Program-made: the position numbers and the translations under genes
Source: Kiritimatiellia bacterium
GTDB lineage: Bacteria > Verrucomicrobiota > Kiritimatiellia > RFP12 > UBA1067
Reading direction: 5' to 3'
DNA length: 63,745 nt
NCBI GenBank assembly: GCA_017544725.1
Contig: JAFYDR010000001.1
Location: 1-63,745, forward strand
Shown: positions 1 through 29,698 of the stretch, piece after piece
How the letters are laid out: every line of letters begins with the position of its first letter
How positions within the stretch are numbered: the first letter of the stretch is position 1
The notes under the pieces: generated by a model
What the model was told of the DNA's origin: nothing
Databases searched by the model: none
Seen by the model: the letters and a program-made list of their open reading frames with translations, nothing else

Positions 1-1
1 C

Positions 2-319: not shown

Positions 320-321
320 CG

Positions 322-6165: not shown

Positions 6166-6269
6166 TAGGCATCCTCGAACCTTGGTGTCAAAAATTGTAC
6201 CATGAAGCGATACGGAGTAAAAAGGTTAAAATGGACAGTAAGACGTGTTACCCAGCTGGCGGCGTCAGC

Positions 6270-12037: not shown

Positions 12038-12262
12038 GGCGGCAAAGCCACCAGCGGGATAAGTGTGTTAAGCTGGTTAGGCTGGTTAGGCAGAGAAGGG
12101 ACATAAAGGACGAAAATGACAAGAGGAACGAGCGATCATACTCCGACACTTGTCATTAGTGACTTTGCCGCCTCTTCATTTTTCACTCGCCATTCGTCAT
12201 TGCCGCCGCAAGGCGGCACATCATTCTTCATTCCGAACGAAGTGAGGCAACGGGGACATTGC

Positions 12263-12644
12263 GGGCGCATCTGCGTATTTCACCGTCGTCTTTTGAAAAT
12301 GAAAACAACAGAAACAACGTAAAAAACAACTTGTCTTTAGAACGCGGGCCAACTCGCCCGCGTAATACACGGTGGTAATATGGAGAGCCGCCGTCCCGGC
12401 GGCTATGATGTGAACGATACAGCCGCCGAGACGGCGGCTCTCCATAGCGGCAAGCTCCCAACCCGCGCCGTGCGCGGGAACGTTCATGGGAATAACTTGT
12501 CGGTTTCGACGACGTGGGTATCGTCGTTATGCGGTGGACGCGACGGAGCGCGTCCCTCCCATTCGTCACTCGTCACTGCCGCCTTTGGTTGTTTCCAAAA
12601 TCCTCTCGTGCGTACGGAATGGGTGAATGACGCAGATGCGCCCC
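12263..12644. mobile_element. Second composite copy of the MITE-like family, inverted relative to 6270-6611
   Basis: Module B at 12263-12362 is about 90% identical by eye to the reverse complement of 6511-6611. Module A at 12588-12644 is about 53/57 identical to the reverse complement of 6270-6326. Both outer ends are GGGCGCATCTGCGT. The core differs from copy 1 and I saw no clear target duplication. Confidence 0.4.
12380..12445. repeat. Long perfect hairpin inside the composite element
   Basis: atggagagccgccgtc (12380-12395) pairs with gacggcggctctccat (12430-12445). An inner cggcggct / agccgccg stem is also present. Confidence 0.7.
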
Positions 12645-12668
12645 CTAAAAACTTTCTTCATTTCGGGA

Positions 12669-12697
12669 TTGATTTAGGGTCGGTTTTTCGCTACACT
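12669..12697 (+). promoter_or_regulatory. Candidate promoter of the pilus-like operon
   Basis: -35 TTGATT (12669-12674), 17-nt spacer, -10 TACACT (12692-12697). RBS aggaga at 12777-12782 precedes the ATG at 12790. Confidence 0.35.
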
Positions 12698-12789
12698 AAA
12701 TCCGTTTTTTAATGGAAGCAGTGTATCTTCGGGTCTGTTCGGGAGAGCGTCCGGGGGTATGTCCGCAGGGTTAAGCAGGAGACGAAATC

Positions 12790-13500
12790 ATGCAAACACG
12801 TGTTGGTTTTCTATCAGTTTTGACGGTCTGTGCGTTGGGTTCGATGTGGATCGGAAGCGCGGGAGCCGCGCCTTCTTCCCGTAACGTGACGGCAGGTAGC
12901 ATGATGGGTACGCGCGGTGCGCGTACCACCGCCGCGCGTACGGCAGGCGGTGCGGAAGAGGGCGGCGCCGAGGGCAAAGTGACGGTCAAGCTCGACCAGC
13001 GCGCGCAGAAGAGCGAGGCTCCCGAATTCAATGCCAACGCCAAGGTAAAGTCGCGTCTGGTCACCAAGCGCCGCGAGTGGGCGCTGGTCGAATGCGAGTA
13101 CAGCACGCACGAGAAGTGGATGGATCAGCTCTCATTCACCTACCATGTCCTCTCTTCCAGCAGGGACGAGGAGTCCGGCAAGCAGATTTACAACTACTAC
13201 ACCACGACCGTTCGGTACATCGACGTTCCCAAGGGCAAGCACCGCAGTTGCGTCTGTCTCTCCCCGAACCTTGTTGAACGTTATGGCGAGCCCGTCGCGA
13301 TGGCTTTGGAGGTGACCGGCAAAGGAAGCGATGTACTCGCATCCGACCAGACCTCTTTTGGTATCAACCTCCCCAAGGAGTGGTGGAAGAACGACAAAGT
13401 GATGAACAGCGAAATGCTCAAGCGCCGTAACGGTCTGATCGATCGCTCCAAGACACCGTTCGCCCTGATCAATCCTGACGACTACGAGGTGGTTCAGTAA
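12790..13500 (+). CDS. Secreted hypothetical protein, first gene of the pilus-like locus (Amuc_1102 position)
   Basis: Signal peptide MQTRVGFLSVLTVCALGSMWIGSAGA followed by a G/A/T-rich linker. The stop lies 1 nt before the pilM-like ATG. Confidence 0.7.
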   Translation: MQTRVGFLSVLTVCALGSMWIGSAGAAPSSRNVTAGSMMGTRGARTTAARTAGGAEEGGAEGKVTVKLDQRAQKSEAPEFNANAKVKSRLVTKRREWALVECEYSTHEKWMDQLSFTYHVLSSSRDEESGKQIYNYYTTTVRYIDVPKGKHRSCVCLSPNLVERYGEPVAMALEVTGKGSDVLASDQTSFGINLPKEWWKNDKVMNSEMLKRRNGLIDRSKTPFALINPDDYEVVQ

Positions 13501-13501
13501 C

Positions 13502-15229
13502 ATGGCAGATCGTATCCTTACCGTCAATGTCGGCGCCAGCAAGTTCTTGCTTGCCGAGTTCGCCGTGAAAAGCGGGAAGTCGCCGCAGTTGCTCAACTAC
13601 GGTGTCGGCGCGCTCGGCAACAATCCCGACCAGGAAGGCAGCATTGCCCCCGATCTGGGGATGCAGATGCGCGCGGTGATGCGGGAGCGCGGCATCCGTC
13701 CCGCCCCCCTGATGATTTCCCTTTCCGGGCAGATGGTCTTCCCTCGCTTCGTGAAGCTCCCCGCCGTGAGCGAGGACAAGCTGCAGCAGATGGTGCAGTA
13801 CGAAGTCGAGCAGAACGTGCCGTTCCCGCTGGACGAGATCGTCTGGAACTATCAGTTCCTCGGCGATGCCAGTACCGGCGAGCAGGCGGCGATGATCGTC
13901 GCCGCCAAGGTCGATAGCGTACGCGAGGTGACGGATTCGGTCACCGCAGCCAAGCTGGAGCCGGATCTGGTCGATGTGGCGCCGATGGCGCTCTACAACT
14001 GCCTGAAGTACAACTATCCCGATTTGGACGGTTGCACCGTGTTGTTGGACATCGGCTCGCGTTCGACCAACCTGATCTTCGTCGAGGACGAGAAGATCTA
14101 CAGCCGTTGCATTCCTGTTGCGGGCAACGCCATCACCACCGAGATTGCCAAAGTCTTTGACATCCCCTTCCTGGAGGCGGAACTCCTGAAGAAGGAACGT
14201 GCGTTCGTCTCGCTCGGCGGCGTGTATCAGGCGGAAGACGAGACGGATGAGAAGATTTCCAAGATCGTCCGCAACGTTGTGACGCGTCTCCATGCGGAGA
14301 TCAGCCGCAGCATCAACTTCTACCGCAGCCAGCAGGGGGGCAGCGTCCCGACGCGCATCATCCTCACGGGCGGGTCGGCGGTGATTCCGCAACTGGATTA
14401 CTTCTTCCGCGACAAGTTGCAGGTCGAGGTCGAGGTTCTCAACCCCTTCAACAACCTGCACATCAGTCCGCGTCTCAACCCCAAGGCGTTGGAGCGCGAC
14501 GGCTTCGAAATGGCGGAATGCGTCGGACTGGCGTTGCGCCGTTCGATGAAGTGCCCGGTCGAAATCAACCTGATGCCGCCGGAGATTACCGAGCAGAAGA
14601 GTTTCCAGAAACGCATCCCGTATCTGGCTCTTGCCGCGGCGGGTATCCTCTGCGGACTCGGACTCTGGATCATCTACGAGAAGCAGATTTCCAAGAACCT
14701 CGAAGAGCAGCTGGAGGTCGCCGAGCAGAAGTTCACCAAGATGAACGCCGACGCGAAACGCTACGACGCGGCATTCAACCAGCAGAAGGAGAAGGTCGAG
14801 GACGCCGAGGCCGCCATCGCGCGGATGTCCATCCGCTCACGCTGGCTAGACCGCGTACAGAAGGTTCAGCAGGCCGTCTCCGACTTCACGGGCGTCTGGA
14901 TCATGTCGCTCACGCCGATCGCCTCCGCACCCGCTACCGAGGATTCGGAAGGCGCCGCAGCCTCGTCCTCTGGCGAGAGCAGCAAGGGGGTTCGGATCGT
15001 GCTGCGCGGCTGGAACGACCGCCTGCGCGAGATCGAGGCGAAGAACAACCGCGGTACCGTTGCGGAACAACTCTGCAGCAAACTCAAGACGTTCGCCGCT
15101 TTTGGAAAGGGCGAGTCGGATGTTTCAATTGTCGGCAGCAAGGATGTGGATGGGTACATGACCGAATTCACGATCGACGCGATCTTCGCCTCTGCTTCCT
15201 CCGAGTCACAGGAAAAGGAGGACGAATAG
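13502..15229 (+). CDS. pilM: PilM-like actin-fold ATPase fused to a PilN-like TM/coiled-coil segment
   Basis: LLDIGSRSTNLIFVE and ILTGGSAVIP actin-fold motifs. These are followed by EINLMPPEI (a PilN-type NLLP-like motif), the TM IPYLALAAAGILCGLGLWIIY and a coiled coil. Confidence 0.85.
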   Translation: MADRILTVNVGASKFLLAEFAVKSGKSPQLLNYGVGALGNNPDQEGSIAPDLGMQMRAVMRERGIRPAPLMISLSGQMVFPRFVKLPAVSEDKLQQMVQYEVEQNVPFPLDEIVWNYQFLGDASTGEQAAMIVAAKVDSVREVTDSVTAAKLEPDLVDVAPMALYNCLKYNYPDLDGCTVLLDIGSRSTNLIFVEDEKIYSRCIPVAGNAITTEIAKVFDIPFLEAELLKKERAFVSLGGVYQAEDETDEKISKIVRNVVTRLHAEISRSINFYRSQQGGSVPTRIILTGGSAVIPQLDYFFRDKLQVEVEVLNPFNNLHISPRLNPKALERDGFEMAECVGLALRRSMKCPVEINLMPPEITEQKSFQKRIPYLALAAAGILCGLGLWIIYEKQISKNLEEQLEVAEQKFTKMNADAKRYDAAFNQQKEKVEDAEAAIARMSIRSRWLDRVQKVQQAVSDFTGVWIMSLTPIASAPATEDSEGAAASSSGESSKGVRIVLRGWNDRLREIEAKNNRGTVAEQLCSKLKTFAAFGKGESDVSIVGSKDVDGYMTEFTIDAIFASASSESQEKEDE

Positions 15230-16270
15230 ATGAAAAAACAACAAGTAACCCTCATCGTATTGGGGTCCATCTTCCTGGTTCTCACCGCTGGCGTCGGCTG
15301 GTTCCTTTGGCAGGCCATCGACGAGCGTACGGGCAAGGAGGAGGATTTGGCGCGTAAGACCGCTGAACTGGACCGCATCTACAACCGCCCTGTTTTCCCC
15401 AACGCGACGAACATCGCGGTGGTGAAGCAGAACGAAGTGATCGTCTCCAACTGGATGCGGCGTGCCGCCGCCCGGTTGCAGCAGGGCGCGATCCGCGTCG
15501 ATCTCCAGACGCCCAGCGGTTTCAAGCAGAAGCTGCAGGACACCGTGCGGGAACTCTCGTCCCAGCCCGGTTCCGTTGCCGGCAAGATTTGCGGACCGAA
15601 CTTCTTCTTCGGGTTCGACCGTTATCTCGGCGAGTCCTCCTCGCTTCCTGCCAACACCAATGTCGCCACGCGCCTTGCCTACCAGCTGGCGGTGATCGAC
15701 AAGATCTGCAAGGAACTCTACGCGGACGGCATTTTGGAAATCCGCTCCGTGACACGCGAGCTCTTTGACGACGCCGAGGCGAAACAGCGCGAGCTGGAGG
15801 CACAGCAGCAGGAAGAAGAGTCCCGCAACCGCCGTCGCAGGAACCGCCGCAACAAGAAGCAGGCGCAGGAGAACGCCGCCCAGCAGGGCGACGGAACCGC
15901 AAATTTCCAGATTGCGAAACAGTCGTTCTCCTTCGAGTTCGTTGCGCGTCCCGACGCCTTTACAAAGGTGCTCAACAGTCTGGCCGCGATGGAGCCGTTC
16001 ACCGCGATCACCAAGGTCGAGTACCGCGCGACCGCCGATTCCCTCGGGCCCTACACGCAGCGGCTGAAGAGTTCGGACGATGCCCTCAAGCTCCAGCAAC
16101 AGCAGGAGGAAGATTCGGGTGACGCGCTTGCCGAGGCGGCGGAGAAGAAAAAAGCCGCCGCGCCCGCGCAGCCGAAGCGTATCATCGTCACCAGCCCCGA
16201 CCTGGAACCGCCCCTGTTGGTCAAGATCGAGGCGGATGTTTACTCGTTTGACTACAAGGAGACCGAATAA
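15230..16270 (+). CDS. N-terminally anchored envelope protein in the PilO / Amuc_1100 position
   Basis: The ATG directly abuts the pilM-like stop. TM VTLIVLGSIFLVLTAGVGWFLW. Highly charged insert EAKQRELEAQQQEEESRNRRRRNRRNKKQAQEN. C-terminal PLLVKIEADVYSF. Confidence 0.7.
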   Translation: MKKQQVTLIVLGSIFLVLTAGVGWFLWQAIDERTGKEEDLARKTAELDRIYNRPVFPNATNIAVVKQNEVIVSNWMRRAAARLQQGAIRVDLQTPSGFKQKLQDTVRELSSQPGSVAGKICGPNFFFGFDRYLGESSSLPANTNVATRLAYQLAVIDKICKELYADGILEIRSVTRELFDDAEAKQRELEAQQQEEESRNRRRRNRRNKKQAQENAAQQGDGTANFQIAKQSFSFEFVARPDAFTKVLNSLAAMEPFTAITKVEYRATADSLGPYTQRLKSSDDALKLQQQQEEDSGDALAEAAEKKKAAAPAQPKRIIVTSPDLEPPLLVKIEADVYSFDYKETE

Positions 16271-16272
16271 CC

Positions 16273-17388
16273 ATGGCTACGAACCAGAAAGATAACGTCT
16301 TGCTCCGCTACTACGACAAGATCGTCGCCGTGGTGGTGCTGCTCGGTCTGCTCGGTCTGCTCTTCATCCTGCTCTCCAGGATTGACCAGAACAAGAAGGA
16401 CGGCGTCGATAAGATTCGGAACCGCCCCGAGCCGAACAAGCCCGCCGAGGTGATTTCGATGGAGCCGTACAACGCCGCAATGCGTTCGTTGCAGAAACCG
16501 ATGCGCCTGGAGCCGCCGAGCATTCAGGATCCCGGCTGCTACATCCCGGAACGTCGCGTACAGTGCGTCAACAAGGATTGCCGCAAACCCATTCCCCTGG
16601 ATGCCGAGAAGTGCGTCTTCTGCGGAGTCGAGCAACCGAAGGCCGCGCCCGTTCAGGAAATTCTGGACGCGGATGAGGACGGCATGGCTGACAAGTGGGA
16701 GGTCAAGTACGGGCTCAATCCGCAGAACGCAGAGGATGCCAAGGAAGATATGGACAACGACGGCTTCACCAACCTGGAGGAGTTTGTTGCCGGAACCGAT
16801 CCGCGCGATCCGAAGTCGCATCCGGATCTGGTCACGTTGTTGCGCGTTGCCGACGTGCGCGGCAAGCGGATGCCTTTCATCTTCGGCTCGAAGAACAAGA
16901 TGCCGGACGGTTACCAGCTTGTCTTCAATTTGATCAAGGCCAAGTTCGGTCAGTCTGCTATCTACGCCAAGACCAACTCCGTTATCTACGCCAGTAAGGG
17001 CGGATACGAAGCGGCGAAGATCGGCGAGGCGAAACCCGAAGATCCGAAAGAAGCCTATCAGGTCGTGAAGTTCACCGACAGTTCGGAGAAGCGCGACACG
17101 GGCAAGGGCTACAAGGAAACGGTCGATACGTCGGTCGTCGTCCTGCGCCGCCTGTCCGACAAGCGCGACATTTCGCTGACCATCGGTGACAAGAAACCTG
17201 TCATTACCGATACCGAAGCGGTTCTCGCCTTCCCGCTGGACAAGAAGGAGTGGAGCCTGATCGAAGGAGGAGATTTCAAAGTCCGTGAAGAAACCTACCG
17301 CGTGATCTCAATTGAAAGCGCGAAGAAGGAAGTTCTGATCGAAAATCAGGAAACAAAGAAGAGGAGTTTGATTCGGCCTGCCGAATAA
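16273..17388 (+). CDS. Membrane-anchored protein with a zinc ribbon and thrombospondin-type-3-like repeats (Amuc_1099 position)
   Basis: TM IVAVVVLLGLLGLLFILLS. CVNKDCRKPIPLDAEKCVFCG at about 16564-16626. DADEDGMADKWEVKYGLNP..DMDNDGFTNLEEFVAGTDPRDP at about 16672-16810. Confidence 0.75.
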   Translation: MATNQKDNVLLRYYDKIVAVVVLLGLLGLLFILLSRIDQNKKDGVDKIRNRPEPNKPAEVISMEPYNAAMRSLQKPMRLEPPSIQDPGCYIPERRVQCVNKDCRKPIPLDAEKCVFCGVEQPKAAPVQEILDADEDGMADKWEVKYGLNPQNAEDAKEDMDNDGFTNLEEFVAGTDPRDPKSHPDLVTLLRVADVRGKRMPFIFGSKNKMPDGYQLVFNLIKAKFGQSAIYAKTNSVIYASKGGYEAAKIGEAKPEDPKEAYQVVKFTDSSEKRDTGKGYKETVDTSVVVLRRLSDKRDISLTIGDKKPVITDTEAVLAFPLDKKEWSLIEGGDFKVREETYRVISIESAKKEVLIENQETKKRSLIRPAE

Positions 17389-17565
17389 CTTGAAATTTGT
17401 GACTTGATTTAGGTGGAAAAAGTAGGTATGATACTCTTTCCTTTACTTCTTGGACGATGAGAGGGGTGTGGCTGAAACCCGCACCCCGACCGGTACGGAG
17501 GCCGCTGTCAGTCCTTCGCATCGGGAAGAAATGTGAGCTGCCCCATGAAAGAGGAGTTTCCTAAA

Positions 17566-20500
17566 ATGACGCATAGTATGAAGTGGTTTATGATTCTCGG
17601 TGCCTCTGCGGCATTGAGCGGTTCGATTCTGTTTGCGCAGAATGACTTGGAAGCCTTGCTGGAGGACTTGGGTGGAGATGCCAAGCCCGCCGTCCAGGCT
17701 CCTGCAAAGGCTGACGACGCGAAGAAAGCGGCGGAAGCGAAAAAGCAGGAGGAGGAGAAAGCGGCTGCCGAGAAAGCGAAAGCGGAAAAGGAAGCCGCCG
17801 AAGTGAAAGAGGCTGCCCCCGCTGCCGAGAAGAAGGCAGAGGAAAAGGTTGCCGAAGTGAAGGAAGCCGCCAAGAATGCCGAGAAGAAGGCGGAAGAGAA
17901 AGTCGCCGAGGTGAAAGAGGCTGCCAAGGATGCCGAGAAGAAGGTGGAAGAGGGCAAGAAGGCCGCCGATGCCGACGTGGATGATCTCTTGAAGGATCTG
18001 ACCGCCGAGAAGAAGGATGACGCGCCTACCGCCGAAAAGCCCGCCAAGGCGAAGCCCGAGCAGCCCGCAGTTGCGGAAGAGAAGCCTGCCGAAGCCCCTG
18101 CCGTCGAAAAGAAGGCGGAGGAAAAAGTCGCCGAGGTGAAAGAGGCTGCCAAGGATGCCGAGAAGAAGGCGGATGTGGATAACCTCCTGAACGATCTCAC
18201 GGAGAAGCCCGCTGAAAAGAAGGCGGAAGCTGAGAAGCCCGTTGAGGAAAAGCCCGCTGTTGCGGAAGAGAAGCCCGCCGAAGCTCCAGTTGCCGTCGAG
18301 GGTGACAAGCCGGAAGCCGAGAAACCGGTTGCTGTCGAAGGTGACAAAACGGAAGCGAAAGCGGATGCTCCCGCTGCCGTGGAAGGTGACAAGCCGGAGG
18401 CAGAAAAGCCGGAGGCGAAAGCAGCCGCTGATGCTCCTGTGGATGAAACGGCCGCCATCATTTCCGAACTCGAAGGCCTGGAACGCATCCGCGTGGAATC
18501 GATGGATCAGCATGGTAAGTCCTCTCTCGAAAGCGCCCGCACCGCGATGCGCAAGCGCGACTACGAAACCGCCGCCACGCAGTACCAGCAGGCGATCGAG
18601 TTCATCAGCAACCGTCCCGCCAACGCCGCGTTGATCGATGAGGCTCGCAAGGGGCTCGGTGAGGCGTACTACCGCGACGCGCTCGAGAAGAGCAAGAACA
18701 ATGACAATGAGAATGCGCGTATTCTCGCGGTCAAGGCGCAGGAAGCCGGTCATCCGCAGGCTGCCCGTCTGCTGGAGTCGTTGCAGGACAAGCCCGCTAC
18801 GGTTGTAGTCGATACCTCCAAGATCTCCCACCGCGTGAATGATGAGGACCACAAGATCCAGCGTACCGAGACGCGTCGCCGGATGCGTCGCGCCCGCCAG
18901 CTCTGCGCCACCGGTGAGTACACCAAGGCTTTGGAGCAGTGCGAGCTGATCCTTCGCGACTATCCCGACACCAAGGAAGCGATGGTTCTGCGCGACTACA
19001 TCGCTGACCGCATGAAGCAACTCTCGGACATCGAGTTCGAGGCGACCCGCAGCTACATGATCCGTGAGGTTCGCGACACCTGGAACACCAAGCGTTACGC
19101 CGTGGATAGCGCCGAGTTGCCGAAGGGGCAATTGGAAATGACAGCCAAGGACGGCAAAACAATCAGAGGCATGGGGTCGTCTGCGGAACAGATGGTTCAG
19201 GAAAAACTGGACAAGATTATCATTCCGGAAGTCAACTTCCGGCCGCCAGCCACGATTATCGATGCGGTCAACTTCTTCAACAACGCCTCTCGCGATTACG
19301 ACAATCCTGAATTGCCGATGGAGAAGCGCGGCGTCAACCTCGTGTTGAAGCTTGCCCAGGGCGGCGGTGCAGCTGCCGCACCTGCCGGTGAAGACAATGC
19401 GGATCCCTTTGCAGCTGCCGCTCCCGGTGGCGGGAACGCGGGTGGTGCGCCTGTCATTCCCGCGGTCACCGCACGTTTCATCACCCTCAAGGAAGCTCTG
19501 AAGCTCGTCTGCGATGTCTCCGGCATGAAGTTCCTCATTCGTGGACCCGTGGTCATGATCGTTCCGGTCAATGAGCCGGATACCGACCTCATCACCCGTT
19601 CCTACAACGTGCTCTCCTCTATCTCGGATCGTGTCAGTGCCGCGCAGAGCGAGATAGCAAGCAGCAAGAAGGGCGGAGACAACACCTTCCTGCAACAGGA
19701 CGATATGAGTCAGAAACAGGACTGGAAGGCGTTCTTCGGTGAACTGGGCGTCCAGTGGCCGGAAGGTTCCTCCATCGCCTACGTTTCCACCATCGGCAAG
19801 CTGCGCGTGAAGAACACCGCCGAGAACCTCGCCGTCTTCGAGCAGGTCTTGGAAGACTTGAACATCACGCCGCGCTTGATCGAGATTGAGGCGCGCTTCG
19901 TCGAGGTCTCCCAGGAGGATCTCAACTCCCTCGGTTTCGAATGGCTCCTCAACGGCGACTTCTCCTTTGGCGTACCCGGATTCCTCGGCAAGAACTTCCG
20001 CAAGTACACGACCTCCGGAACGACCATTGCAACGGACTCTGCGGGCGCCCCGATTCAGGTGTACGACGCGGACGGGAACCTGACCTATGTGAAAACGACG
20101 CGGTATGCCCCGTACACCAGTCCCGGTCGCTTGACGGAAACCCTCCTGAATCCGGAGTACGACGATGCGAAGAACCTTGTCGCGGGTACCTACTACCGCA
20201 ACGATGGACTCGTTACGCCGGTGACCCAAAACAATCTGGCGGGTACAATCAATCCGCTCATTCCCCAGTATGGAAATGTCTATAGATCTGGTCACAAAGC
20301 CAGCATTTCCGCGATTGACGGACAGAGCTACAGTACGGGACAGCGCTTCCTCAGCCAGGAAGGTAACCACATCTCCGGTGAAGGGGGCAGCAAGAACGAC
20401 CAGTTCATGAAGATCAACGCGATCTTTGGCAATGCCGACCTCTCGATGATCCTCCACATGTTGAGCCAGCGTTCCGACACCGACCTCTTGAACGCCCCGC

Positions 20501-21255
20501 GTGTGGTTACCAAGAACGGTCAGGAAGCCGTCATGAAGGTTGTCACCGAGTACATCTACCCGACGGAATACGATGTCGAGATTTCGCAGAACGGCTCTTC
20601 ATCCAGCACCTCCGGAAACTCCGCCGATCCGATCGCCACGGTCGAGCCGCAGAACTTCGAGATGCGCGAAGTCGGCACGATTCTCCAGGTCGTCCCGGAA
20701 GTCTCCCCTGAAGGCCAGATGATCAACCTCATGCTGAACCCGCAGGTCGTCTCCGAGCCGACGTGGAAGAACTACGGTACCCAGTTGCCGAAGACGGTCT
20801 ATCGTCCCGCCACGGCAGCCGAACTCGCCATGAACCCGCTCCTCGCGACCCAGAACGGCGGTATGATCGCCGAGACGGGGTACATCCAGCTGCCGATGGA
20901 GCAGCCCTTCTTCTCCGTGCGTTCGGTCAGCACACAGCTCTCCGTCTATAACGGCGCGACGGTCGTGATCGGCGGTCTCATCACCGAAGAGCGCAAGACG
21001 ATGGAAGACAAGATTCCGTTGTTGGGCGATATTCCCTACCTCGGACGTCTCTTCCGTAGCAAGTCGGAATACTCCAATAAGCGCAATCTCTTGATCTTCA
21101 TCACGGCGCGTCTGGTTGATCCCGCCGGCAAGTTGATCCGCCAGAGCGAGGGCGATTCCCTCCTGAAGGGCGGCGAAGAAAGTGGTACGCCTCCGGCTGA
21201 GGGCGGTGCAGCTCCTCAGGCTCCTGCGGCAGAACCTGCTGCTACGGTTGAGTAA
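17566..21255 (+). CDS. Giant secretin (PilQ/GspD family) with a long A/E/K-rich N-terminal extension
   Basis: C-terminal secretin signature VVIGGLITEERKTMEDKIPLLGDIPYLGRLFRSKSEYSNKRNLLIFITARLV (about 20960-21120). Signal MKWFMILGASAALSGSILFAQ. The ATG at 17566 lies 8 nt after aaagaggag; alternatives are 17545 and 17578, and the track start at 17533 is GTG. Confidence 0.9.
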   Translation: MTHSMKWFMILGASAALSGSILFAQNDLEALLEDLGGDAKPAVQAPAKADDAKKAAEAKKQEEEKAAAEKAKAEKEAAEVKEAAPAAEKKAEEKVAEVKEAAKNAEKKAEEKVAEVKEAAKDAEKKVEEGKKAADADVDDLLKDLTAEKKDDAPTAEKPAKAKPEQPAVAEEKPAEAPAVEKKAEEKVAEVKEAAKDAEKKADVDNLLNDLTEKPAEKKAEAEKPVEEKPAVAEEKPAEAPVAVEGDKPEAEKPVAVEGDKTEAKADAPAAVEGDKPEAEKPEAKAAADAPVDETAAIISELEGLERIRVESMDQHGKSSLESARTAMRKRDYETAATQYQQAIEFISNRPANAALIDEARKGLGEAYYRDALEKSKNNDNENARILAVKAQEAGHPQAARLLESLQDKPATVVVDTSKISHRVNDEDHKIQRTETRRRMRRARQLCATGEYTKALEQCELILRDYPDTKEAMVLRDYIADRMKQLSDIEFEATRSYMIREVRDTWNTKRYAVDSAELPKGQLEMTAKDGKTIRGMGSSAEQMVQEKLDKIIIPEVNFRPPATIIDAVNFFNNASRDYDNPELPMEKRGVNLVLKLAQGGGAAAAPAGEDNADPFAAAAPGGGNAGGAPVIPAVTARFITLKEALKLVCDVSGMKFLIRGPVVMIVPVNEPDTDLITRSYNVLSSISDRVSAAQSEIASSKKGGDNTFLQQDDMSQKQDWKAFFGELGVQWPEGSSIAYVSTIGKLRVKNTAENLAVFEQVLEDLNITPRLIEIEARFVEVSQEDLNSLGFEWLLNGDFSFGVPGFLGKNFRKYTTSGTTIATDSAGAPIQVYDADGNLTYVKTTRYAPYTSPGRLTETLLNPEYDDAKNLVAGTYYRNDGLVTPVTQNNLAGTINPLIPQYGNVYRSGHKASISAIDGQSYSTGQRFLSQEGNHISGEGGSKNDQFMKINAIFGNADLSMILHMLSQRSDTDLLNAPRVVTKNGQEAVMKVVTEYIYPTEYDVEISQNGSSSSTSGNSADPIATVEPQNFEMREVGTILQVVPEVSPEGQMINLMLNPQVVSEPTWKNYGTQLPKTVYRPATAAELAMNPLLATQNGGMIAETGYIQLPMEQPFFSVRSVSTQLSVYNGATVVIGGLITEERKTMEDKIPLLGDIPYLGRLFRSKSEYSNKRNLLIFITARLVDPAGKLIRQSEGDSLLKGGEESGTPPAEGGAAPQAPAAEPAATVE
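17827..18165 (+). repeat. In-frame 54-nt tandem and dispersed coding repeats (EKKAEEKVAEVKEAAKDA units)
   Basis: Units at 17827-17880 and 17881-17934, a partial third unit, and another copy at about 18106-18159. A second series, AVEGDKPEAEKP, follows up to about 18420. Confidence 0.8.
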
Positions 21256-21311: not shown

Positions 21312-21917
21312 ATGCGTCGAATTGCATTGACCGGTGGCATTGCGTGTGGCAAATCCCTATTTTGTGAAGGACTGAAAGAAGAGGGGATTGCCGTATTGGA
21401 TGCCGATGACGTCACGCATCGGTTAGAGGCATGCGGCGGTGCGGCGGTGGAACCCCTGGTCAGGATTTTCGGGAACGAGATTTTGGCGGAAGACGGTTCG
21501 ATTGATCGCAAACGGTTAGGCAAGAAGGTATTTGCCTCGAAAGAGGCGCGCGCGGCGGTGAATGCCGTTCTCCATCCGCTGGTGAAGGCGGAAATCGCGC
21601 GGTGGGTGTCAGAGGAGACACCCGGAGAAAACAGAATCCGCGTGGCGGTGATTCCGCTACTTTTTGAATGCGGATGGGAAGACGATTGGGATACGATACT
21701 CTGCCTCACATCCAGTGAGGAGAACCAAGTGAAGCGGCTGATGCAGACGCGTGGGCATTCCGAGACGGAAGCGCGTCAGCGTATTGCTTCGCAAATGCCC
21801 GTGGCGGAAAAGGCCGTCCGTTCGCAGCTCGTGATTCACAACGATGCCGACAAGGATTCGTTGCGTGAAGCCGCGAAACGTACGGCAGACGCACTTCGTG
21901 CCGGCAGCTTTGCATAG
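21312..21917 (+). CDS. coaE: Dephospho-CoA kinase
   Basis: MRRIALTGGIACGKS P-loop at the N-terminus; about 200 aa; LDADDV motif. Confidence 0.88.
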   Translation: MRRIALTGGIACGKSLFCEGLKEEGIAVLDADDVTHRLEACGGAAVEPLVRIFGNEILAEDGSIDRKRLGKKVFASKEARAAVNAVLHPLVKAEIARWVSEETPGENRIRVAVIPLLFECGWEDDWDTILCLTSSEENQVKRLMQTRGHSETEARQRIASQMPVAEKAVRSQLVIHNDADKDSLREAAKRTADALRAGSFA

Positions 21918-22179: not shown

Positions 22180-24525
22180 ATGACTACAGAAAATGAAGGA
22201 CAACAGCAGACAGAGATGCCTGCCGCTACACCATCACCTGCGGGGACGCAGCAAGAGCGCACGACAGACGCGCCGCGTCCGCGTGGACGTAAACCGAACA
22301 AACAACGCAACGACACGCGTGGCATGAGTTTCTCTCACCCGGTGGCGCACGCGAAGCCTCGTCGGGAACAGAAAGAGGCAGACCCAATGAAACCGCAGCA
22401 GCAGTTGCCGCTTTCCACCAAACCGGGACAGCCGCATTCTTCGCGCGGCGGGAAAGGCCGGAATCAGCACGGAAAATCACAGTTCCGGAACGCGCGTGGG
22501 AAAAAACGCGAAATCAAGGGATTGCCCGAAGACCTCGGAGCGGGTGACAATGCACCGATCGAGACGAGCGGCATCATTCCCGAAAATGTCGATGTTGCCG
22601 TTGAGAATATCGCTGCCGATCTCGGTCACACTGACACGGTGAAGCGGGAACCCCCCGCCGAGACGCCTGTTGCGGGGACACCAGAACCCGTTGCCGAGGT
22701 GGTTCAGCCGGCCAGTGAGCCCAAACCTGCTGAGACAGTTCAACCTGCCGCCGCGCCCCAACCTACCGCCGTTCCCCCTGCAGCCACGCAAGGGAAAAAG
22801 GGGAAAAAACAGGCGAAGCGCGAAGCTCGCGCGCCAGAAGCACCGACTCCCGCATCAGCAGTTGCCGAAGAGGCAAAGCCAGCGGTTCCTCAGCCGAAAC
22901 CACAGCCAAAAGCCGAGGCTACGGAAGCGCATCCCCAGCCGCCACAGCCCGCTCCTGCGCCTCAGCCAGCCAGCGCACCCCAGCCTGCCGCTACGGTTCA
23001 ACCAGCTCCTGCGCCTCAGCCAGTAGCCACGCCCCAACCAGCCAGCGCGCCGCCCCAACCTGCCGCCACAGTTCAACCTGCCAGCGCGTCCCTTGCGGGC
23101 ACGCTGGAGAAAAAACCGCAACCCCAACCCCAGCAACAGCAGCAGCGCAAGGTGCCGCAGGGTGGCGTTCCCGCTTCCGAGGCTCCGCAGAATCCCAAGC
23201 AGTGGGCGCGTGGTCCGCAGGGGAATCCGATCGTCGAGGTCTATCGTCCACCCGTGCCGCAGAACCTCCCGGAAATTTTCCTGAAGGATTTGCAGAGCAA
23301 GACGGTGGTGGAGTTGCTGGCGTACCTGCCGAACCTTTCGGCGGAAGAGGCGAGCAACATCCAAAAGCATCAGATCATCGTGCAGATTATCCGCAACTAT
23401 CTACGGCAGGGTGGCATGGTGATCACCAGTGGCGTGTTGGAGATCATGCCGGACGGCTACGGTTTTCTGCGTTCGCCCAAGAGCAACTATCTGCAGTGTC
23501 CGGAGGACGTTTTCGTCTCACCCTCACAGGTGCGCCGCTTCGCGTTGCGTACGGGTGATCTCGTGCAGGGAATTGTGCGCGAGCCGCGTGACAAGGAACG
23601 GTTCTTCGCATTGGCACGAGTCGATACGGTGAATGGAAAGCCGGCCGCCGAGGCGAGGCGTACCACGCACTTCGAGGATCTCACTCCGCTTTTCCCGACG
23701 CGCCGTATCCGCCTAGAGAGCAAGCCTGAAGAGCTTTCCATGCGCATCATGGACATCTTCACGCCGGTTGGTTTCGGTCAGCGCGGTTTGATTGTTGCGC
23801 CGCCGCGCACAGGCAAGACCATTCTGATGCAGAAGATGGCGAATGCCATCTCCGAAAATCATCCCGATGCGGTGCTGATCATTCTCTTGATTGACGAACG
23901 TCCCGAAGAAGTGACCGATATGCAGCGCAACACCAAGGCGCAGGTAATATCCTCCACCTTCGACGAAGCACCAGAACGCCACATCCAAGTGGCGGAGATG
24001 GTGATCGAGATGGCGAAACGTCAGGTGGAGAACGGGAAGGACGTGGTGATCCTGCTGGACAGTATCACGCGTCTCGCCCGTGCCTACAACACCGTACAGC
24101 CGCACAGTGGACGTGTTCTCACAGGCGGTGTCGATGCCAACGCCCTGCACAAACCGAAGCGTTTCTTCGGTGCCGCGCGAAACATCGAAAACGGCGGTAG
24201 CCTCACCATCATCTCCACTGCGCTGATCGAAACGGGAAGCCGCATGGACGAGGTGATCTTCGAGGAGTTCAAGGGAACGGGCAACATGGAGCTGAATCTC
24301 GACCGCGAGATCTCCGACAAGCGCATCTATCCGGCGATCAACATCGAGAAGTCCGGTACGCGCAAAGAGGAGCTGCTGCTCTATCCCGAAGAGCTGAACC
24401 GCACGTGGATGTTGCGTCGTGCGTTGACGGGCGTACCCAGTGTCGATGCGATCGAGATGGTCTTACGTCGCATCAAGCCCACCAAGAGCAACGCCGAGTT
24501 CCTGCTCGGAATCAAGGAGGGGTAA
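22180..24525 (+). CDS. rho: Transcription termination factor Rho with an N-terminal P/A/Q-rich extension of about 360 aa
   Basis: Canonical Rho begins near codon 365 ([19 protein letters not shown], nt 23272). RNA-binding region GYGFLRS. Walker [10 protein letters not shown]-terminal [28 protein letters not shown]. Confidence 0.92.
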
Positions 24526-24637
24526 GCCACCAGGAAAATGCCCGGAGCGGCTGAAAAGCGGGGAAGCTAAAAAGCAGGATCAGCTTACCCCGCTTAGCCG
24601 GGGCACTTGGGAGGAGCACGCTAGGGACTTCTGGATT

Positions 24638-24675
24638 CCACGGGGGTTCGGGGGGCTTCCCCCCGTCCCATTGCA
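24638..24675. repeat. Single family-C repeat downstream of rho
   Basis: ccacgggggttcggggggcttccccccgtcccattgca. It contains acggggg / cccccgt and gggggg-ctt-cccccc pairings. Confidence 0.7.
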
Positions 24676-24694
24676 AGAAAAGGAGAAAGCCACA

Positions 24695-26677
24695 ATGATC
24701 AAAACACCAACAGTACTGGCGGCAGCCGTATTCGCCGCTTTCACCGTATGCTACACTGCGTATGCGGACGCGCTGACCGACGCCTTGCGCCAGCCGATGC
24801 TGCCGTCCGGGCAGAACACGGCATACACGACGATCTTCAATGAACTGGAGGAGCTGGATTCCAAAGCCGATGACGCCTGGCGGCAGCTCACCACGTTGGA
24901 AGCGTTCCGTGCGCATCAGGCGCATCTGCGCGAACGCATGACAGCGGCGGTTGGCGGCTTCCCGCAACGGACGCCGCTGAATCCGAAGGTCGTTGCGACC
25001 ATCCCGCGCGAGGGGTACCGCATCGAGAAGATTCTGATGGAGAGTCAGCCGGGACATTACCTGACAGGACTGCTCTACTTGCCGGACGCGGAGAAGTTCA
25101 AGCCTCCGTATTCCGCTGTGATAGTTACCTGCGGTCACAGCGACAATGGCAAGGGGTCTGGTACCTACCAGCGCATCTGTGTGCAGGCCGCGCAGCGCGG
25201 CCTTGCGACCTTCATCTATGATCCCGTCGAGCAGGGCGAACGGATGCAGCCGCCGGGCTATGCGAACTGCAAGGGACACAATGCGATTGGCGTTCTTTCT
25301 TCGCTTCTCGGTTGGAGCATGGCTCGTTTCCGCATCTGGGATGGCATGCGTTGTCTGGACTACCTCGCCTCGCGTCCCGACATCCGTGGCGGCAAGCTCG
25401 GTGTGATGGGCAACAGCGGTGGCGGCACGATGACTTCGCTGATCATGGCGATGGATGACCGCGTACAGGCCGCCGCGCCTTCCTGTTACCTCACCTCCTT
25501 GCGCGAGGTCTGTCGCTGGATGGGACCGCAGGATGCGGAACAGAACATCTTCGGGCAACTCGCTTTCGGCTTGAATCACGCGGGCTACATCCTGCTTCGC
25601 GCGCCTTCGCCGGTGAGCGTCACCTGTACCTACAACGACATGTTCCCGAACTACGGGACGCGCGAGACCTATCGCGTTGTCCGCCGTGTTGCCGACCGAT
25701 TCGGTTGGAGCGAGCGCTTTACGCTGGCGGACGTACCGGGGCCGCACGGTTGGCGCGAGAGTACGCGCGCCGCCTCCGTACAGTGGATGGCGCACTGGCT
25801 TGCGGACAGCAAGGACGGTTTCCCGCTGGACATGGCGGCGAATCGCCGTTTGGACCTCACCTTTTCCGAGAAGAGTGCTGATTGCGGTCTTCCGAAACCC
25901 GACTACAACGTAACTCCGAACGGCAAGGTGAGTGAGCTGTCCGGGTTCCGTTCCTGCTACGATTTGCTGGCGGATGAACTGGACCGTGTGGAAAAAACAC
26001 GGAACGGCAAGACGCTGGATGCGGCGGGACTGGTTGCCGCCGCGCGTCGGTTGGCGCGCATTCGTCCGTTGGCCGAATGCGGCGCGGTTGCCGTCGAGAT
26101 CGCATCGAACGAGATGACGAATGGTGTGAAGGTGTCTCGCCTTGCCTTCGCCTATCCCTCCGGCATGGCGATTCCTGCCGTACTCTGCGAACCCGCTCAG
26201 GTGAAACAGGCGCCCGTGCTGATTGTCAACGACACCGCACGTCTCGATGCGCAGGAACGCGTGCGGAAGTTGCTGGGCGAGGGACATCCCGTGATGGTGG
26301 CGGACATTCATGGCGTGGGTGAGAATACCGGTTTTCGCCATGCGTTCTATACCGCGTCGAACAAGGATGAAGGAATCGCCGCGATGCTCTACCTCATGGG
26401 TAAGTCACTCGTCGGCGTCAAGGCGGAGGACATCGCAGTCTGTGCAGACGCCCTCAACAAACGTTACCAGAAACCGGTGGTGCTGGAGGTCAGCGGCAAC
26501 TCTGTCGTGCCCGGTGCCCATGCGTATGCCGTTGAGCGCGGACTTTTCGCGGGTATCCAGACGGAAAACGCGCCTTTGGGCTGGGCCGCCGCGATTCGAG
26601 GTCGCGCGATTTACCGTTACGCCAACGCCGTCAACGGTGCGTTGCGCGAGTACGACTGGCCGGAGCTTTTGAAGTAG
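24695..26677 (+). CDS. Secreted alpha/beta-hydrolase (acetyl-xylan-esterase / peptidase S9-like)
   Basis: The ATG at 24695 follows aaggag. Signal MIKTPTVLAAAVFAAFTVCYTAYA. Nucleophile elbow GVMGNSGGG. The track start at 24440 would overlap rho and the repeat. Confidence 0.8.
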   Translation: MIKTPTVLAAAVFAAFTVCYTAYADALTDALRQPMLPSGQNTAYTTIFNELEELDSKADDAWRQLTTLEAFRAHQAHLRERMTAAVGGFPQRTPLNPKVVATIPREGYRIEKILMESQPGHYLTGLLYLPDAEKFKPPYSAVIVTCGHSDNGKGSGTYQRICVQAAQRGLATFIYDPVEQGERMQPPGYANCKGHNAIGVLSSLLGWSMARFRIWDGMRCLDYLASRPDIRGGKLGVMGNSGGGTMTSLIMAMDDRVQAAAPSCYLTSLREVCRWMGPQDAEQNIFGQLAFGLNHAGYILLRAPSPVSVTCTYNDMFPNYGTRETYRVVRRVADRFGWSERFTLADVPGPHGWRESTRAASVQWMAHWLADSKDGFPLDMAANRRLDLTFSEKSADCGLPKPDYNVTPNGKVSELSGFRSCYDLLADELDRVEKTRNGKTLDAAGLVAAARRLARIRPLAECGAVAVEIASNEMTNGVKVSRLAFAYPSGMAIPAVLCEPAQVKQAPVLIVNDTARLDAQERVRKLLGEGHPVMVADIHGVGENTGFRHAFYTASNKDEGIAAMLYLMGKSLVGVKAEDIAVCADALNKRYQKPVVLEVSGNSVVPGAHAYAVERGLFAGIQTENAPLGWAAAIRGRAIYRYANAVNGALREYDWPELLK

Positions 26678-27283: not shown

Positions 27284-29698
27284 TCACTGCACCGGAACGA
27301 TACGGAGCGCACCTTTTGTCGGGCGTGTGATCACCTTGTAACCGCCCGGCGCATTCACACGGAGGCGTAGCTCGTCGCCCTTGCGTTCCCACGAGATCGT
27401 GAGCAACTGGTCACCGATGGGAATCGTCCCCGCGCACGAGGCGAGCGGCACATCCGCGAAGGACAGCTCCACCTGACGGTTCACCGTGTCGATCTTACGG
27501 ACGCCCAGCACGTCGCGGTAAAGCACACGTACCACGTGGCTGGCGAAACCGTGGCAGCAACTCGCCACCGTGGTGTCGTTCTCCCATAGCGTCCCGGTCT
27601 TTTCCGCCATGCCGTAGAAGTACCCCTTCGTCTCGTCGAGGATTTGTGCGGAGAGTCCGGCTGCGGAGAGGATCTCCAGACGTAGGTAATTTCCAATGAA
27701 GGCATTGGAGAAGCCGACCTTCTCCCACTTCTTCGTCTGCTTGCGCTTGGGACCGAAGTCGTCGCGCATCCGCGCCCACAGCTCGGGGTAGCGTTCGGGC
27801 GTTGCCGTGCCGAAGAAGAAGGCGTAGTACTGGCAAGTTTCCGTGCTTTCCGTATCCACCTTCAGCGAACCGTCGGGTTGCCGCAGGGCGCGATCCACGA
27901 AGAACGTGCCGTTCCAGGATTGCTTGCGGATTGTCTCGCGGACCTGTTCCGCCTCCTTCGCCAGTTCGGGCAACGAGTAGAGATGCGCCACGGCGTCCAG
28001 TACCTTCGCCCATGTCATGTTGGAGGGATAGTTCACATCCTGCACTAGACGGTTGCTGCGCGACCATTCCACGAAGACCCAGCGCGGCAGGCGTTCCAGC
28101 AGACCGTCGCTATTCTTGTAGCGTTTCAGGAAATCGACCAGCTTCAGGATGCGCGGACGGAAGGCGTCGATGAAGGCGCGGTCTCCCGTGCGCGCATAGA
28201 ACTCCTCCAGCTGGATGACGAACCACATTGCCCAGTTGGGAATGAAGTTGCCGTCGGGGAAGTCACTGGGGTAGCACATCGGCAACATGCCATCCGCCAC
28301 GCCGGGGAAGGAGTCGGGCTTCAGGAAGTTCTCCAGGAAAATCCGTTCCTCCTTGTCATTGCCGGTGAGGTCCATCGAGACACGCGCACTGAAGAAAGCG
28401 TCGCAGTTCCACCCGGCACGTTCGCGCGTCGGGCAGTCCATGAAGCCATCGACCGCGTTCTCGATGAAGGTCTGACGCGCTGCTTCGAAGATGCGGTTCA
28501 GTTGCGCGTCAGAGCAGGTGAAGGTTGCGCGATCCGTTTCGGGGTTGACGTACTCGCGCAGATAGAGGTTGTTGACAAGGCAGGTGCCGCCACGCACGAT
28601 CAACTTTCCGTAACGGAAGTTATACGGTTCGAAGGCATCCAGCCGATAGACGCCAGGCTCCGTCAGCCGCCATGCCACGACTGCGTCGCATCCGTAACGG
28701 CTGATGTTGATGTCGTCCTTCGACAGGATCTCGTCGAAGGCGAAATACACCGTTGCCGGTTGTTCGCACTGGATCGACAGACCGGGGAATCCCGCGTCGT
28801 TCACACCGAAGTCGAAGATCGCGAACTCATTGTCGCGCAGCGTGAGCGGCCATGCGGGCTTCGCACCGACGGCTTCGCGCGAGACCGTCGCCGTCCGCAG
28901 CACCTCGTAGCGCGGATTCCAAGCAAGCTCCTTCTCCTTGTAGCCGTCGCACCTCTCGCCATTCACGCAGGCTAGTCCGCGATCGGCGTGAACCGGAGCC
29001 TTTTCGTCGTAGCGCGACAGGCCGCGCGAGACAACCTCTGTGACGGGACGGATTGCAAACTTCGGCAGTGCAACGATGCGCGGCAACAACTGCAACTGTT
29101 TTTGGACAGCGAGTTTCGCCAGCGGCTCTGTACTCTTGTTGAGACGCCAGTCGTGCGCCTTCGTGCCGTGTTCGTAGGCTTCGGAGAAGGCGCGTTGATA
29201 GGAGAAACGCTGCACCTTCTGTACGCGGTAGGGAAGAACACGTGCGGCGAAGGCGTTGCCGCCTTCTGTTCCCGTGGCGGCGAGCACGCGTCCGTTCGCC
29301 ACTACCTCAGCTTGGAGGAACGAGGGTTGGCGGATGGTGTAGAAGCTGTTGCAGCAATAACCGGCGACCTCGATCGCCAGTACGTTCTTGCCCGGCTTGA
29401 TACGCGTGCCGAGCGGCCATTCATCGACACGGACGAATCCGTGCGGTCCGCGCGCTGGACCGTATGCGAAGAACTCCCCGTTCAGAAAGACACGGCACAT
29501 CGTCGCACCGGTGAAGCGAAGCACGGCATTCGCCGCATCCGCGCCGTCGAACTCGGTGGTGAACCCAACCTGCAAGTTCCATTCCTTCTCACGATTCTCC
29601 GGCCAGACCGGTTTGGCGGTATCGAACTTTGGCGCGGCCGTTTCCGCACACGCGAACCCGACAAAACAACAACAGACAAACAACCATCTCATCAACAT
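27284..29698 (-). CDS. Secreted six-hairpin glycoside hydrolase, alpha-L-rhamnosidase (GH78)-like
   Basis: MDCPTRERAGWNCDA resembles the GH78 DCPxRER-GW motif. Signal MLMRWLFVCCCFVGFACA. The ATG at 29698 follows ggagga. Confidence 0.72.
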   Translation of the reverse strand: MLMRWLFVCCCFVGFACAETAAPKFDTAKPVWPENREKEWNLQVGFTTEFDGADAANAVLRFTGATMCRVFLNGEFFAYGPARGPHGFVRVDEWPLGTRIKPGKNVLAIEVAGYCCNSFYTIRQPSFLQAEVVANGRVLAATGTEGGNAFAARVLPYRVQKVQRFSYQRAFSEAYEHGTKAHDWRLNKSTEPLAKLAVQKQLQLLPRIVALPKFAIRPVTEVVSRGLSRYDEKAPVHADRGLACVNGERCDGYKEKELAWNPRYEVLRTATVSREAVGAKPAWPLTLRDNEFAIFDFGVNDAGFPGLSIQCEQPATVYFAFDEILSKDDINISRYGCDAVVAWRLTEPGVYRLDAFEPYNFRYGKLIVRGGTCLVNNLYLREYVNPETDRATFTCSDAQLNRIFEAARQTFIENAVDGFMDCPTRERAGWNCDAFFSARVSMDLTGNDKEERIFLENFLKPDSFPGVADGMLPMCYPSDFPDGNFIPNWAMWFVIQLEEFYARTGDRAFIDAFRPRILKLVDFLKRYKNSDGLLERLPRWVFVEWSRSNRLVQDVNYPSNMTWAKVLDAVAHLYSLPELAKEAEQVRETIRKQSWNGTFFVDRALRQPDGSLKVDTESTETCQYYAFFFGTATPERYPELWARMRDDFGPKRKQTKKWEKVGFSNAFIGNYLRLEILSAAGLSAQILDETKGYFYGMAEKTGTLWENDTTVASCCHGFASHVVRVLYRDVLGVRKIDTVNRQVELSFADVPLASCAGTIPIGDQLLTISWERKGDELRLRVNAPGGYKVITRPTKGALRIVPVQ

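Follow-up and report, generated by a model that had tools for sequence, protein, structure and literature searches.

Organization of the locus and assignment of its genes

We analysed a stretch of 63,745 nucleotides from a Kiritimatiellia bacterium (positions 1 to 63,745 of contig JAFYDR010000001.1, assembly GCA_017544725.1), hereafter called the window, and in particular a locus of five genes (positions 12790-21255) whose products resemble, in the same order, the Amuc_1102 to Amuc_1098 proteins of Akkermansia muciniphila. The Akkermansia cluster was first described as coding for abundant envelope 'pili-like' proteins and is very highly expressed (PMC5332112); it is now named MUL2, Amuc_1102 being mul2A and Amuc_1101 being mul2B. 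A preliminary description of the locus in the window had pointed out this likeness and had presented the locus as a candidate for an under-described envelope system.

Open reading frame (ORF) finding in the window placed all five genes on the + strand, at the coordinates given in the preliminary description; we number them gene 1 to gene 5 from 5' to 3'. Genes 1 and 2 are separated by 1 nt, genes 2 and 3 by 0 nt and genes 3 and 4 by 2 nt, and this spacing suggests that genes 1 to 4 form a single operon; gene 5 follows after 144-177 nt. Since each of the five has tens to thousands of homologues, the genes are real. For comparison we used one genome per GTDB species, 458 of which contain a relative of gene 2, and we examined 80 of the corresponding loci.

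The five proteins were scanned with the NCBIfam models, applying the curated (equivalog) bit cutoff of each model. The best matches were, in gene order, Amuc_1102_rel, Amuc_1101_fam, Amuc_1100_fam, Amuc_1099_fam and Amuc_1098_fam. Only Amuc_1099_fam cleared its cutoff, the other four proteins falling short of theirs. The five proteins are clear but diverged homologues of the Amuc_1102-1098 families. The match to Akkermansia is borne out by the five families in order, by the profile match of gene 1 to the structure 7DSZ and by the ten best structural matches of gene 3; indeed, the similarity of the products of genes 1, 3 and 4 to Amuc_1102, Amuc_1100 and Amuc_1099, on which the preliminary description had staked its reading, was found for all three.

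Gene 1 (12790-13500, + strand) encodes a protein of 236 amino acids (aa) of the Amuc_1102 family (MUL2A-like), predicted to be secreted by the Sec pathway, with a signal-peptide-like N-terminus devoid of a prepilin motif. Its match to Amuc_1102_rel has an E-value of 2.1e-10 over 173 residues and 40.5 bits, for a cutoff of 55. When a profile was built from 26 homologues drawn from the related loci and searched against the PDB, it matched the crystal structure of Amuc_1102 (7DSZ, entry 7dsz_A) with E = 1.3e-13 over 159 positions. In each of the 80 loci, the Amuc_1102-like gene accompanies the machine genes and stands first in the cluster. Single-sequence phmmer searches of the PDB with the products of gene 1 (236 aa) and gene 3 (346 aa) gave nothing at E ≤ 1, and homology is therefore shown through NCBIfam, the locus-derived profile and structure prediction.

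Gene 2 (13502-15229, + strand; 575 aa) belongs to the Amuc_1101 family and is a natural fusion of PilM and PilN. It is recognized by the PilM_2 model of Pfam (E = 2e-41), passes the cutoff of TIGR01175 pilM (168 bits, cutoff 133) and matches Amuc_1101_fam with E = 5.8e-142 and 474.6 bits (cutoff 650). The Amuc_1101 model aligns to 1-491, an alignment that extends through the transmembrane and coiled-coil part. With a gene 2 profile we found, in the PDB, PilM (3JC8_M, E = 1.6e-43, positions 7-349; 2YCH, E = 2.9e-38) and, over positions 355-476, PilN (3JC8_N) with a marginal E-value of 0.0056. The junction between the two parts carries the motif INLMPPE (aa 355-361), without variation across the clade, and then a hydrophobic segment. 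INLMPPE corresponds to INLLP, the motif of PilN identified in structures of the PilM-PilN complex as its binding site for PilM, and would likewise bind PilM. In one locus (L081) of a metagenome-assembled genome (MAG) labelled Verrucomicrobiota, PilM (358 aa) and a PilN-like protein (204 aa) are encoded by separate genes overlapping by 4 nt (742-2429), in an otherwise identical cluster. The fusion was thus gained or lost within the family, and fusion and fission both occur.

Gene 3 (15230-16270, + strand; 346 aa) encodes an N-anchored, PilO-like protein of the Amuc_1100 family (Amuc_1100_fam, E = 6.9e-22, 78.3 bits, cutoff 180). Its AlphaFold2 model is of moderate confidence (pLDDT 69.5), with a helix predicted at residues 3-51. 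When this model was submitted to Foldseek, ranks 1 to 10 were all Amuc_1100 structures (6KNY, 6LAD and 6LAF; E = 2.5e-7 to 3.1e-6, probability 1.0), with TM-scores normalised to target length of 0.60-0.68, and PilO came next with Myxococcus xanthus 3JC8_O (E = 0.0097), Pseudomonas aeruginosa 2RJZ (E = 0.013, probability 1.0) and 5UVR. The model shows that gene 3 has the Amuc_1100/PilO fold. A profile of the Amuc_1100-like family (A1) matched 6LAF in the PDB with an E-value of no better than 0.43. In a library of 1.84 billion proteins, the family comprises 1768 clusters at 50% identity (E ≤ 0.001); for its distant matches, the names of the cluster members added just one further 'Kiritimatiellae' label.

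Gene 4 (16273-17388, + strand; 371 aa) encodes an N-anchored protein of the Amuc_1099 family (Amuc_1099_fam, E = 2.7e-24, 86.3 bits, above the cutoff of 50). Pfam detects TSP3_bac repeats (E = 3.6e-8), and four cysteines, C98, C103, C114 and C117, are invariant. The AlphaFold2 model (pLDDT 87) predicts a membrane helix at 14-49, a Cys4 knuckle, the TSP3 repeats and an all-beta C-terminal half; the N-terminus has no lipobox Cys. Foldseek found nothing in the PDB at E < 0.001 with this model, the top PilP match being 2Y4Y at rank 28 (E = 0.46, probability 0.57), and a gene 4 profile gave chance-level or TSP3-repeat matches only. As no fold match is significant, gene 4 was not identified with PilP. 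A short ORF near the beginning of the window (44-319; 91 aa, reading DSDGDGFPAWQEFLLETDP), which has no Pfam match at E ≤ 0.001, also contains a TSP3-like calcium-binding motif similar to the gene 4 repeats.

Gene 5 (17533-21255, + strand) encodes a secretin of the Amuc_1098 family, of 1240 aa from a GTG codon or 1229 aa, the size first reported, from the ATG at 17566. The Secretin domain of Pfam lies at aa 977-1196 (E = 2.5e-35), and Amuc_1098_fam matches over aa 306-1203 (E = 1e-123; 414.1 bits, cutoff 750). Among PDB structures, the C-terminal domain matches PilQ (6W6M, E = 1.6e-19) and GspD (6I1X, E = 4.5e-18) about equally well; the GspD model TIGR02517, with 127.5 bits (cutoff 351), is the best secretin model outside the Amuc family. 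The large size of gene 5 is due to an N-terminal Lys/Glu/Ala-rich repeat extension of about 300 aa, with 54-nt tandem repeats at nucleotides 17778-17952; it is followed by a TPR-like region (weak TPR matches), and Pfam gave no match to AMIN or Secretin_N at E ≤ 0.1. The spacer before the gene (17389-17565, + strand) is 92.7% identical in a close relative (L001). It contains a promoter-like TTGATT-17-TATGAT sequence (17404-17432, 9/12 match), at a frequency not above that of shuffled sequence.

The preliminary description had already recognized the PilM, TSP3 and secretin domains, and Pfam supports these calls; the N-terminal hydrophobic segments also fit a secreted gene 1 product and an N-anchored gene 3 product, as had been stated. 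Three features by which the locus had been set apart are, in fact, usual. The fusion of PilM and PilN is found in 80 of 80 relatives (median 563 aa), and the Amuc_1101 model itself has 608 positions. Secretins of 861-1310 aa (median 1029) are the rule in the clade. Finally, the charged insert of gene 3 is an Arg-rich, low-confidence loop found family-wide.

Conservation of the cluster and of its flanks

All 80 loci preserve the order 1102-1101-1100-1099-1098-coaE-rho, to the limit of each contig. All five genes of the cluster are present in 55 loci and all seven genes in 34; coaE follows the secretin gene in 39 related loci, and rho follows coaE in 34. In the window, coaE, for dephospho-CoA kinase (21312-21917, + strand; CoaE of Pfam, E = 1.2e-47), and rho (22180-24525, + strand; Rho_RNA_bind, E = 3.4e-31) form a syntenic flank and are not functional parts of the system. 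The rho product (781 aa) has an N-terminal Pro/Gln/Ala-rich low-complexity extension of about 400 aa, its RNA-binding domain starting at aa 417. Further 3' in the relatives lie genes whose products, from their N-terminal residues only, look like trigger factor and ClpP.

The side upstream of the cluster is not conserved among relatives. In the window it is occupied by genes for an ABC_transp_aux protein (E = 3.7e-23) and a DUF4340 protein. The ABC_transp_aux protein scores so weakly with the GldG model TIGR03521 (E = 0.0018, 17 bits, cutoff 390) that we call it GldG-like and not gldG; of the neighbours named initially, DUF4340 and coaE stand and gldG does not. About 150 nt directly before gene 1 (12640-12789, + strand) are noncoding and conserved (92.7% identical to L001), and this stretch may hold a promoter of the operon or be its 5' leader. 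Between the DUF4340 gene and this stretch, the remainder of the 750-nt gap (12038-12640) has no counterpart in L001, a 95%-identical relative; it contains long GC-rich hairpins (e.g. GGAGAGCCGCCG...CGGCGGCTCTCC) and repeated CATTCGTCA motifs, and may be a small inserted repeat element. Promoter and terminator scans of the window gave results no better than with shuffled sequence, and neither tRNA genes nor Rfam families at gathering threshold were found in the whole window. An origin of the locus as a mobile island was considered and rejected, given the housekeeping neighbours coaE and rho and the presence of the cluster in every relative.

The closest relative of gene 2, with 95% amino-acid identity, belongs to a goat-rumen MAG, Kiritimatiellae bacterium RGIG3447, from which locus L001 comes; on this sequence evidence, the source of the window is a rumen or gut Kiritimatiellae bacterium. 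NCBI names homologues 'Amuc_1100 family pilus-like protein', 'Amuc_1099 family pilus-like system protein' and 'type IV pilus assembly protein PilM', and these named homologues come from Kiritimatiellae/Kiritimatiellia MAGs. In about ten relatives forming one subclade, we also observed a conserved signal-peptide protein of about 470 aa whose gene adjoins the cluster upstream, in divergent orientation (- strand; L058 1747-3138, L059 7909-9111, L062 7477-9081, L065 7626-9047 and L069 7641-9071); a weak match to Big_7 is its sole Pfam signal.

Pilin and motor genes in the window and in relatives

The preliminary description had noted the absence from the window of a prepilin leader, of a PilB/PilT ATPase and of PilC. 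Our searches agree: a six-frame regular-expression search found no prepilin leader in the window, and Pfam found no T2SSE/PilB, T2SSF/PilC or N_methyl/pilin domain in about 44 long ORFs, which are essentially all those of the window. This absence is not anomalous. It is normal for operons of the pilMNOPQ type; those of type IVa pilus systems are not known to carry pilin or motor genes.

Most related loci likewise have no linked pilin or motor gene, and the missing parts were found in a few of them. About 7 kb upstream of the cluster and divergent from it, L059 encodes a T2SSF protein (E = 1.9e-64) and a T2SSE ATPase with an MshEN domain (E = 1.4e-134). These genes are part of a group on the - strand (159-6371) which continues with a 357-aa ORF without Pfam match and then a 752-aa protein with Roadblock/LC7 and HHH_3 domains (HHH_3, E = 9.5e-9); HHH_3 is a helix-hairpin-helix type that occurs in the DNA receptor ComEA too. 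Pseudopilin genes lie within 10 kb of the cluster in L056, which has a GspG-like gene and three N_methyl pseudopilin genes, in L065, which has a T2SSG (GspG-like) pseudopilin by Pfam, and in L069, where a near-identical ORF is recognized by its prepilin motif only. The E-values of T2SSG near the cluster in relatives are 1.4e-29 and 6.9e-8. In addition, Pfam identifies a DUF1559-type prepilin in L058, and L065 and L069 contain similar ORFs with the motif only. The clade therefore has the parts that are absent from the window, usually unlinked to the locus.

A Walker-A regular expression for PilB-type ATPases gave three matches in the 80 loci, of which that in L059 alone is a T2SSE protein by Pfam. 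The proteins of L037 and L053 were dropped, as they look, by their N-terminal sequence, like PriA and UvrB.

The preliminary description had named an ordinary split type IV pilus operon, with a complete pilin and motor gene set immediately outside the window, as the alternative to its own reading. The genes found in relatives favour a split system, although the set probably does not lie immediately outside the window.

Other genes of the window

The window also codes for several enzymes of glycan degradation: a rhamnosidase-like six-hairpin glycosidase (27284-29755), a GH2 glycoside hydrolase (52675-55062) and a GH20 hexosaminidase (55069-56973). These glycosidases are consistent with a lifestyle of host- or plant-glycan degradation. 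A protein of 1866 aa with a signal peptide (31216-36816) combines an M12/reprolysin-like metallopeptidase domain with three CHB_HEX_C, three Fn3_assoc and three Flg_new repeats, and is a candidate secreted enzyme for the degradation of glycoproteins.

At the beginning of the window (1-4000), G+C content is low, 0.42-0.47 compared with about 0.57-0.61 elsewhere. Two overlapping ORFs in this part encode a C-5 cytosine DNA methylase (E = 7.8e-54; ORF 1095-2441) and a 398-aa protein without Pfam match (2408-3604), and may be a horizontally acquired restriction-modification pair. At 41185-44079, an electron-transfer flavoprotein (ETF) alpha subunit carries at its N-terminus a fused 2x[4Fe-4S] ferredoxin domain, and the gene for ETF:quinone oxidoreductase comes after it. 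Three large ORFs, all on the - strand, have no Pfam match (3730-6165, 811 aa; 24512-26341, 609 aa; 61745-63613, 622 aa).

Discussion

We propose that the locus is probably the Kiritimatiellae orthologue of MUL2, that is, the envelope-spanning alignment and secretin module of a split type IV filament machine, likely for glycan capture or uptake. The cytoplasmic actin-like PilM domain is joined through INLMPPE and a single transmembrane helix to a periplasmic part resembling PilN. In such a machine, this part would pair in the periplasm with gene 3, the second bitopic protein, of Amuc_1100/PilO fold. The Amuc_1099-like protein, in the position of PilP, may bridge this pair to the N-terminal domains of the secretin, which provides the pore in the outer membrane. 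Pilins or pseudopilins, prepilin peptidase, the PilB-type ATPase and the PilC platform would be encoded elsewhere in the genome. The whole would be used to capture complex glycans, to take them up or both, and to attach to surfaces. With the MUL2 mutants of A. muciniphila as a model, and with the glycan-degrading genes of the window in view, a role in relation to glycans is the most likely one.

The closest known system is indeed MUL2, which has the same five families in the same order. Gene 1 is homologous to 7DSZ and gene 3 has the fold of 6KNY/6LAD/6LAF, the PilM-like protein of both systems runs on through a transmembrane and coiled-coil part, and coaE and rho flank both clusters downstream (for Akkermansiaceae, PMC13174399). 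Unlike MUL2, which belongs to Verrucomicrobiales, the locus lies in the class Kiritimatiellia, and the sequences are very diverged. The secretin has an additional N-terminal Lys/Glu/Ala-rich extension of about 300 aa, whereas the Amuc_1098 model has 805 positions, and the disordered insert of gene 3 is Arg-rich where Amuc_1100 is acidic.

As regards function, Amuc_1098-1102 is reported, in papers citing Davey 2023, to be required for mucin acquisition (bioRxiv 10.64898/2025.12.30.696933, PMC13174399), and MUL2 is likewise said there to be required for gut colonisation by A. muciniphila. The statement of the preliminary description that it is unclear what the apparatus assembles is thus partly outdated, since in A. 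muciniphila the system has been linked genetically to mucin acquisition, according to these citing papers. According to the first of them, a 2025 preprint of the Valdivia laboratory, other A. muciniphila pilus genes required for colonisation lie elsewhere (Amuc_1523-24, 1583, 0394 and 0745), and Amuc_1100 structurally resembles PilO/PilN (bioRxiv 10.64898/2025.12.30.696933). In a 2026 ISME J paper, a type IV-like pilus for glycan attachment is proposed for MUL2, Amuc_1102 is described as resembling an archaeal type IV pilin, and MUL2 synteny extends over Akkermansiaceae and other Verrucomicrobiales, with the genes for the secretin, dephospho-CoA kinase and rho as part of it (PMC13174399; Fig. 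2B legend for the flank). The same study reports a weaker synteny in Chthoniobacterales and none in Methylacidiphilales; it surveyed only these three orders, and Kiritimatiellia are not mentioned (PMC13174399). In the literature library that we searched, no paper links Kiritimatiell* with Amuc_1100, MUL2 or pili.

The type IVa PilM-N-O-P-Q proteins of P. aeruginosa, M. xanthus and Thermus thermophilus offer a second comparison. They share with the locus the order of an actin-like protein, bitopic PilN/PilO proteins, a (here putative) periplasmic linker and a secretin, the similarity of PilM, PilN and PilO (with INLMPPE here and INLLP there) and the absence of pilin, ATPase and platform genes from the operon. 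In contrast, PilM and PilN are one polypeptide in our locus; its fourth protein is not a lipoprotein, has no significant PilP fold match and carries the Cys4 and TSP3 elements; its secretin has no AMIN domain by Pfam and shows instead weak TPR-like matches and a low-complexity extension; and an extra secreted Amuc_1102-like protein heads the operon.

Several points weigh against the proposed orthology with MUL2 or against parts of the scheme. Since four of the five proteins are under the NCBIfam equivalog cutoff, the same function as in Akkermansia is not guaranteed. The PilN match of gene 2 is marginal, and only gene position and topology would make gene 4 an equivalent of PilP. Pilin, ATPase, platform and prepilin peptidase genes are all absent from the window. 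Amuc_1100 was described in A. muciniphila as a surface-detected, TLR2-active protein (PMC5332112), and this location at the cell surface fits poorly with a PilO-like role in the inner membrane. Finally, the glycan-uptake function is extrapolated from another class, through secondary sources, and would hold here by analogy.

Type II secretion and type IV pilus machines share ancestry. We considered whether the locus could be the outer half of a type II secretion system that exports folded glycoside hydrolases and peptidases and neither builds a pilus nor takes up glycans, with the PilM-PilN fusion as GspL, the PilO-like protein as GspM, gene 4 as GspC and the secretin as GspD. The overall logic of GspC-L-M-D is the same, the secretin domain resembles GspD no less than PilQ, with TIGR02517 as its best model outside the Amuc family, the pseudopilins encoded close to the cluster in L056, L065 and L069 are of the GspG type, and the window is rich in large, secreted-looking glycan-degrading enzymes. 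However, the actin-like domain is of the PilM type, gene 2 matching PilM models (TIGR01175 above cutoff, 3JC8_M) and not GspL, and gene 3 matches PilO structures. Pfam and NCBIfam gave no GspC, GspL or GspM family match, and no gsp operon surrounds the locus. Moreover, the ATPase of L059 has an MshEN domain, as in MSHA-type pilus ATPases, and the defect reported for Akkermansia MUL2, in the secondary sources, is in mucin acquisition and not in secretion. We consider a type II secretion system unlikely.

The linkage of the Amuc_1102-like gene to the machine genes in every locus, the lack of a linked pilin or motor gene in most of them and the comparison of Amuc_1102 with an archaeal type IV pilin (PMC13174399) could also suggest a self-contained, pilin-free apparatus which would export or assemble Amuc_1102-like and/or Amuc_1100-like proteins into the 'pili-like' surface structures proposed for Akkermansia; this would be the under-described envelope system of the preliminary description. 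Such an apparatus is very unlikely: the five genes provide no energy source for assembly or export, homologues of PilM, PilN and PilO are known only as scaffolds working with PilB and PilC, the signal peptide of gene 1 is an ordinary one and not a prepilin leader, gene 3 has an N-terminal membrane anchor and the PilO fold, and T2SSE, T2SSF and prepilins are encoded in the clade.

Least probable of all is that the locus serves as envelope module for a competence pilus taking up DNA, like PilMNOQ in Thermus or Vibrio, for although the top PDB match of the secretin is PilQ of the Vibrio cholerae competence pilus (6W6M) and the HHH_3 protein of L059 is encoded two genes past T2SSE/T2SSF, the latter is a single anecdotal case in one genome, the window has no competence genes, and the strict conservation, the very high expression in Akkermansia (PMC5332112) and the mucin phenotype point elsewhere.

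In a further, rather improbable reading, the module, found from Akkermansia to Kiritimatiellia and with the gene for a secreted Amuc_1102-like protein linked to it in every case, would not be an ordinary pilus scaffold; a glycan-import route peculiar to the Planctomycetes-Verrucomicrobia-Chlamydiae (PVC) group would be built around it. A secretin-gated, filament-driven conduit would pull large polysaccharides or glycoproteins into the periplasm, as a 'selfish' uptake in bacteria without Sus-type systems, and the Amuc_1099-like protein, a fold orphan, and the Amuc_1102-like protein would handle the substrate.

The locus is a new, diverged member, in another lineage, of a known and already named kind of system, which is only partly understood. 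Our analysis extends the known range of the MUL2-type system to the class Kiritimatiellia and supports a PilMNOPQ-like reading of it, and reveals no new kind of system. The gain is incremental, the NCBI pipeline already naming such proteins in Kiritimatiellae MAGs. Amuc_1100 is the most studied host-active protein of Akkermansia, in a cluster whose machinery is still poorly defined, and its reading as a PilO-type scaffold subunit is supported here; the cultivable Kiritimatiellales provide a second experimental system. The five genes form a fixed block with coaE and rho in the Kiritimatiellae-type genomes that we sampled (80 of the 458 matching species-level genomes), beyond the orders surveyed previously (PMC13174399). 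This speaks for an old core envelope machine, inherited vertically by the glycan-degrading bacteria of the group, and against an adaptation of Akkermansia or to the gut.

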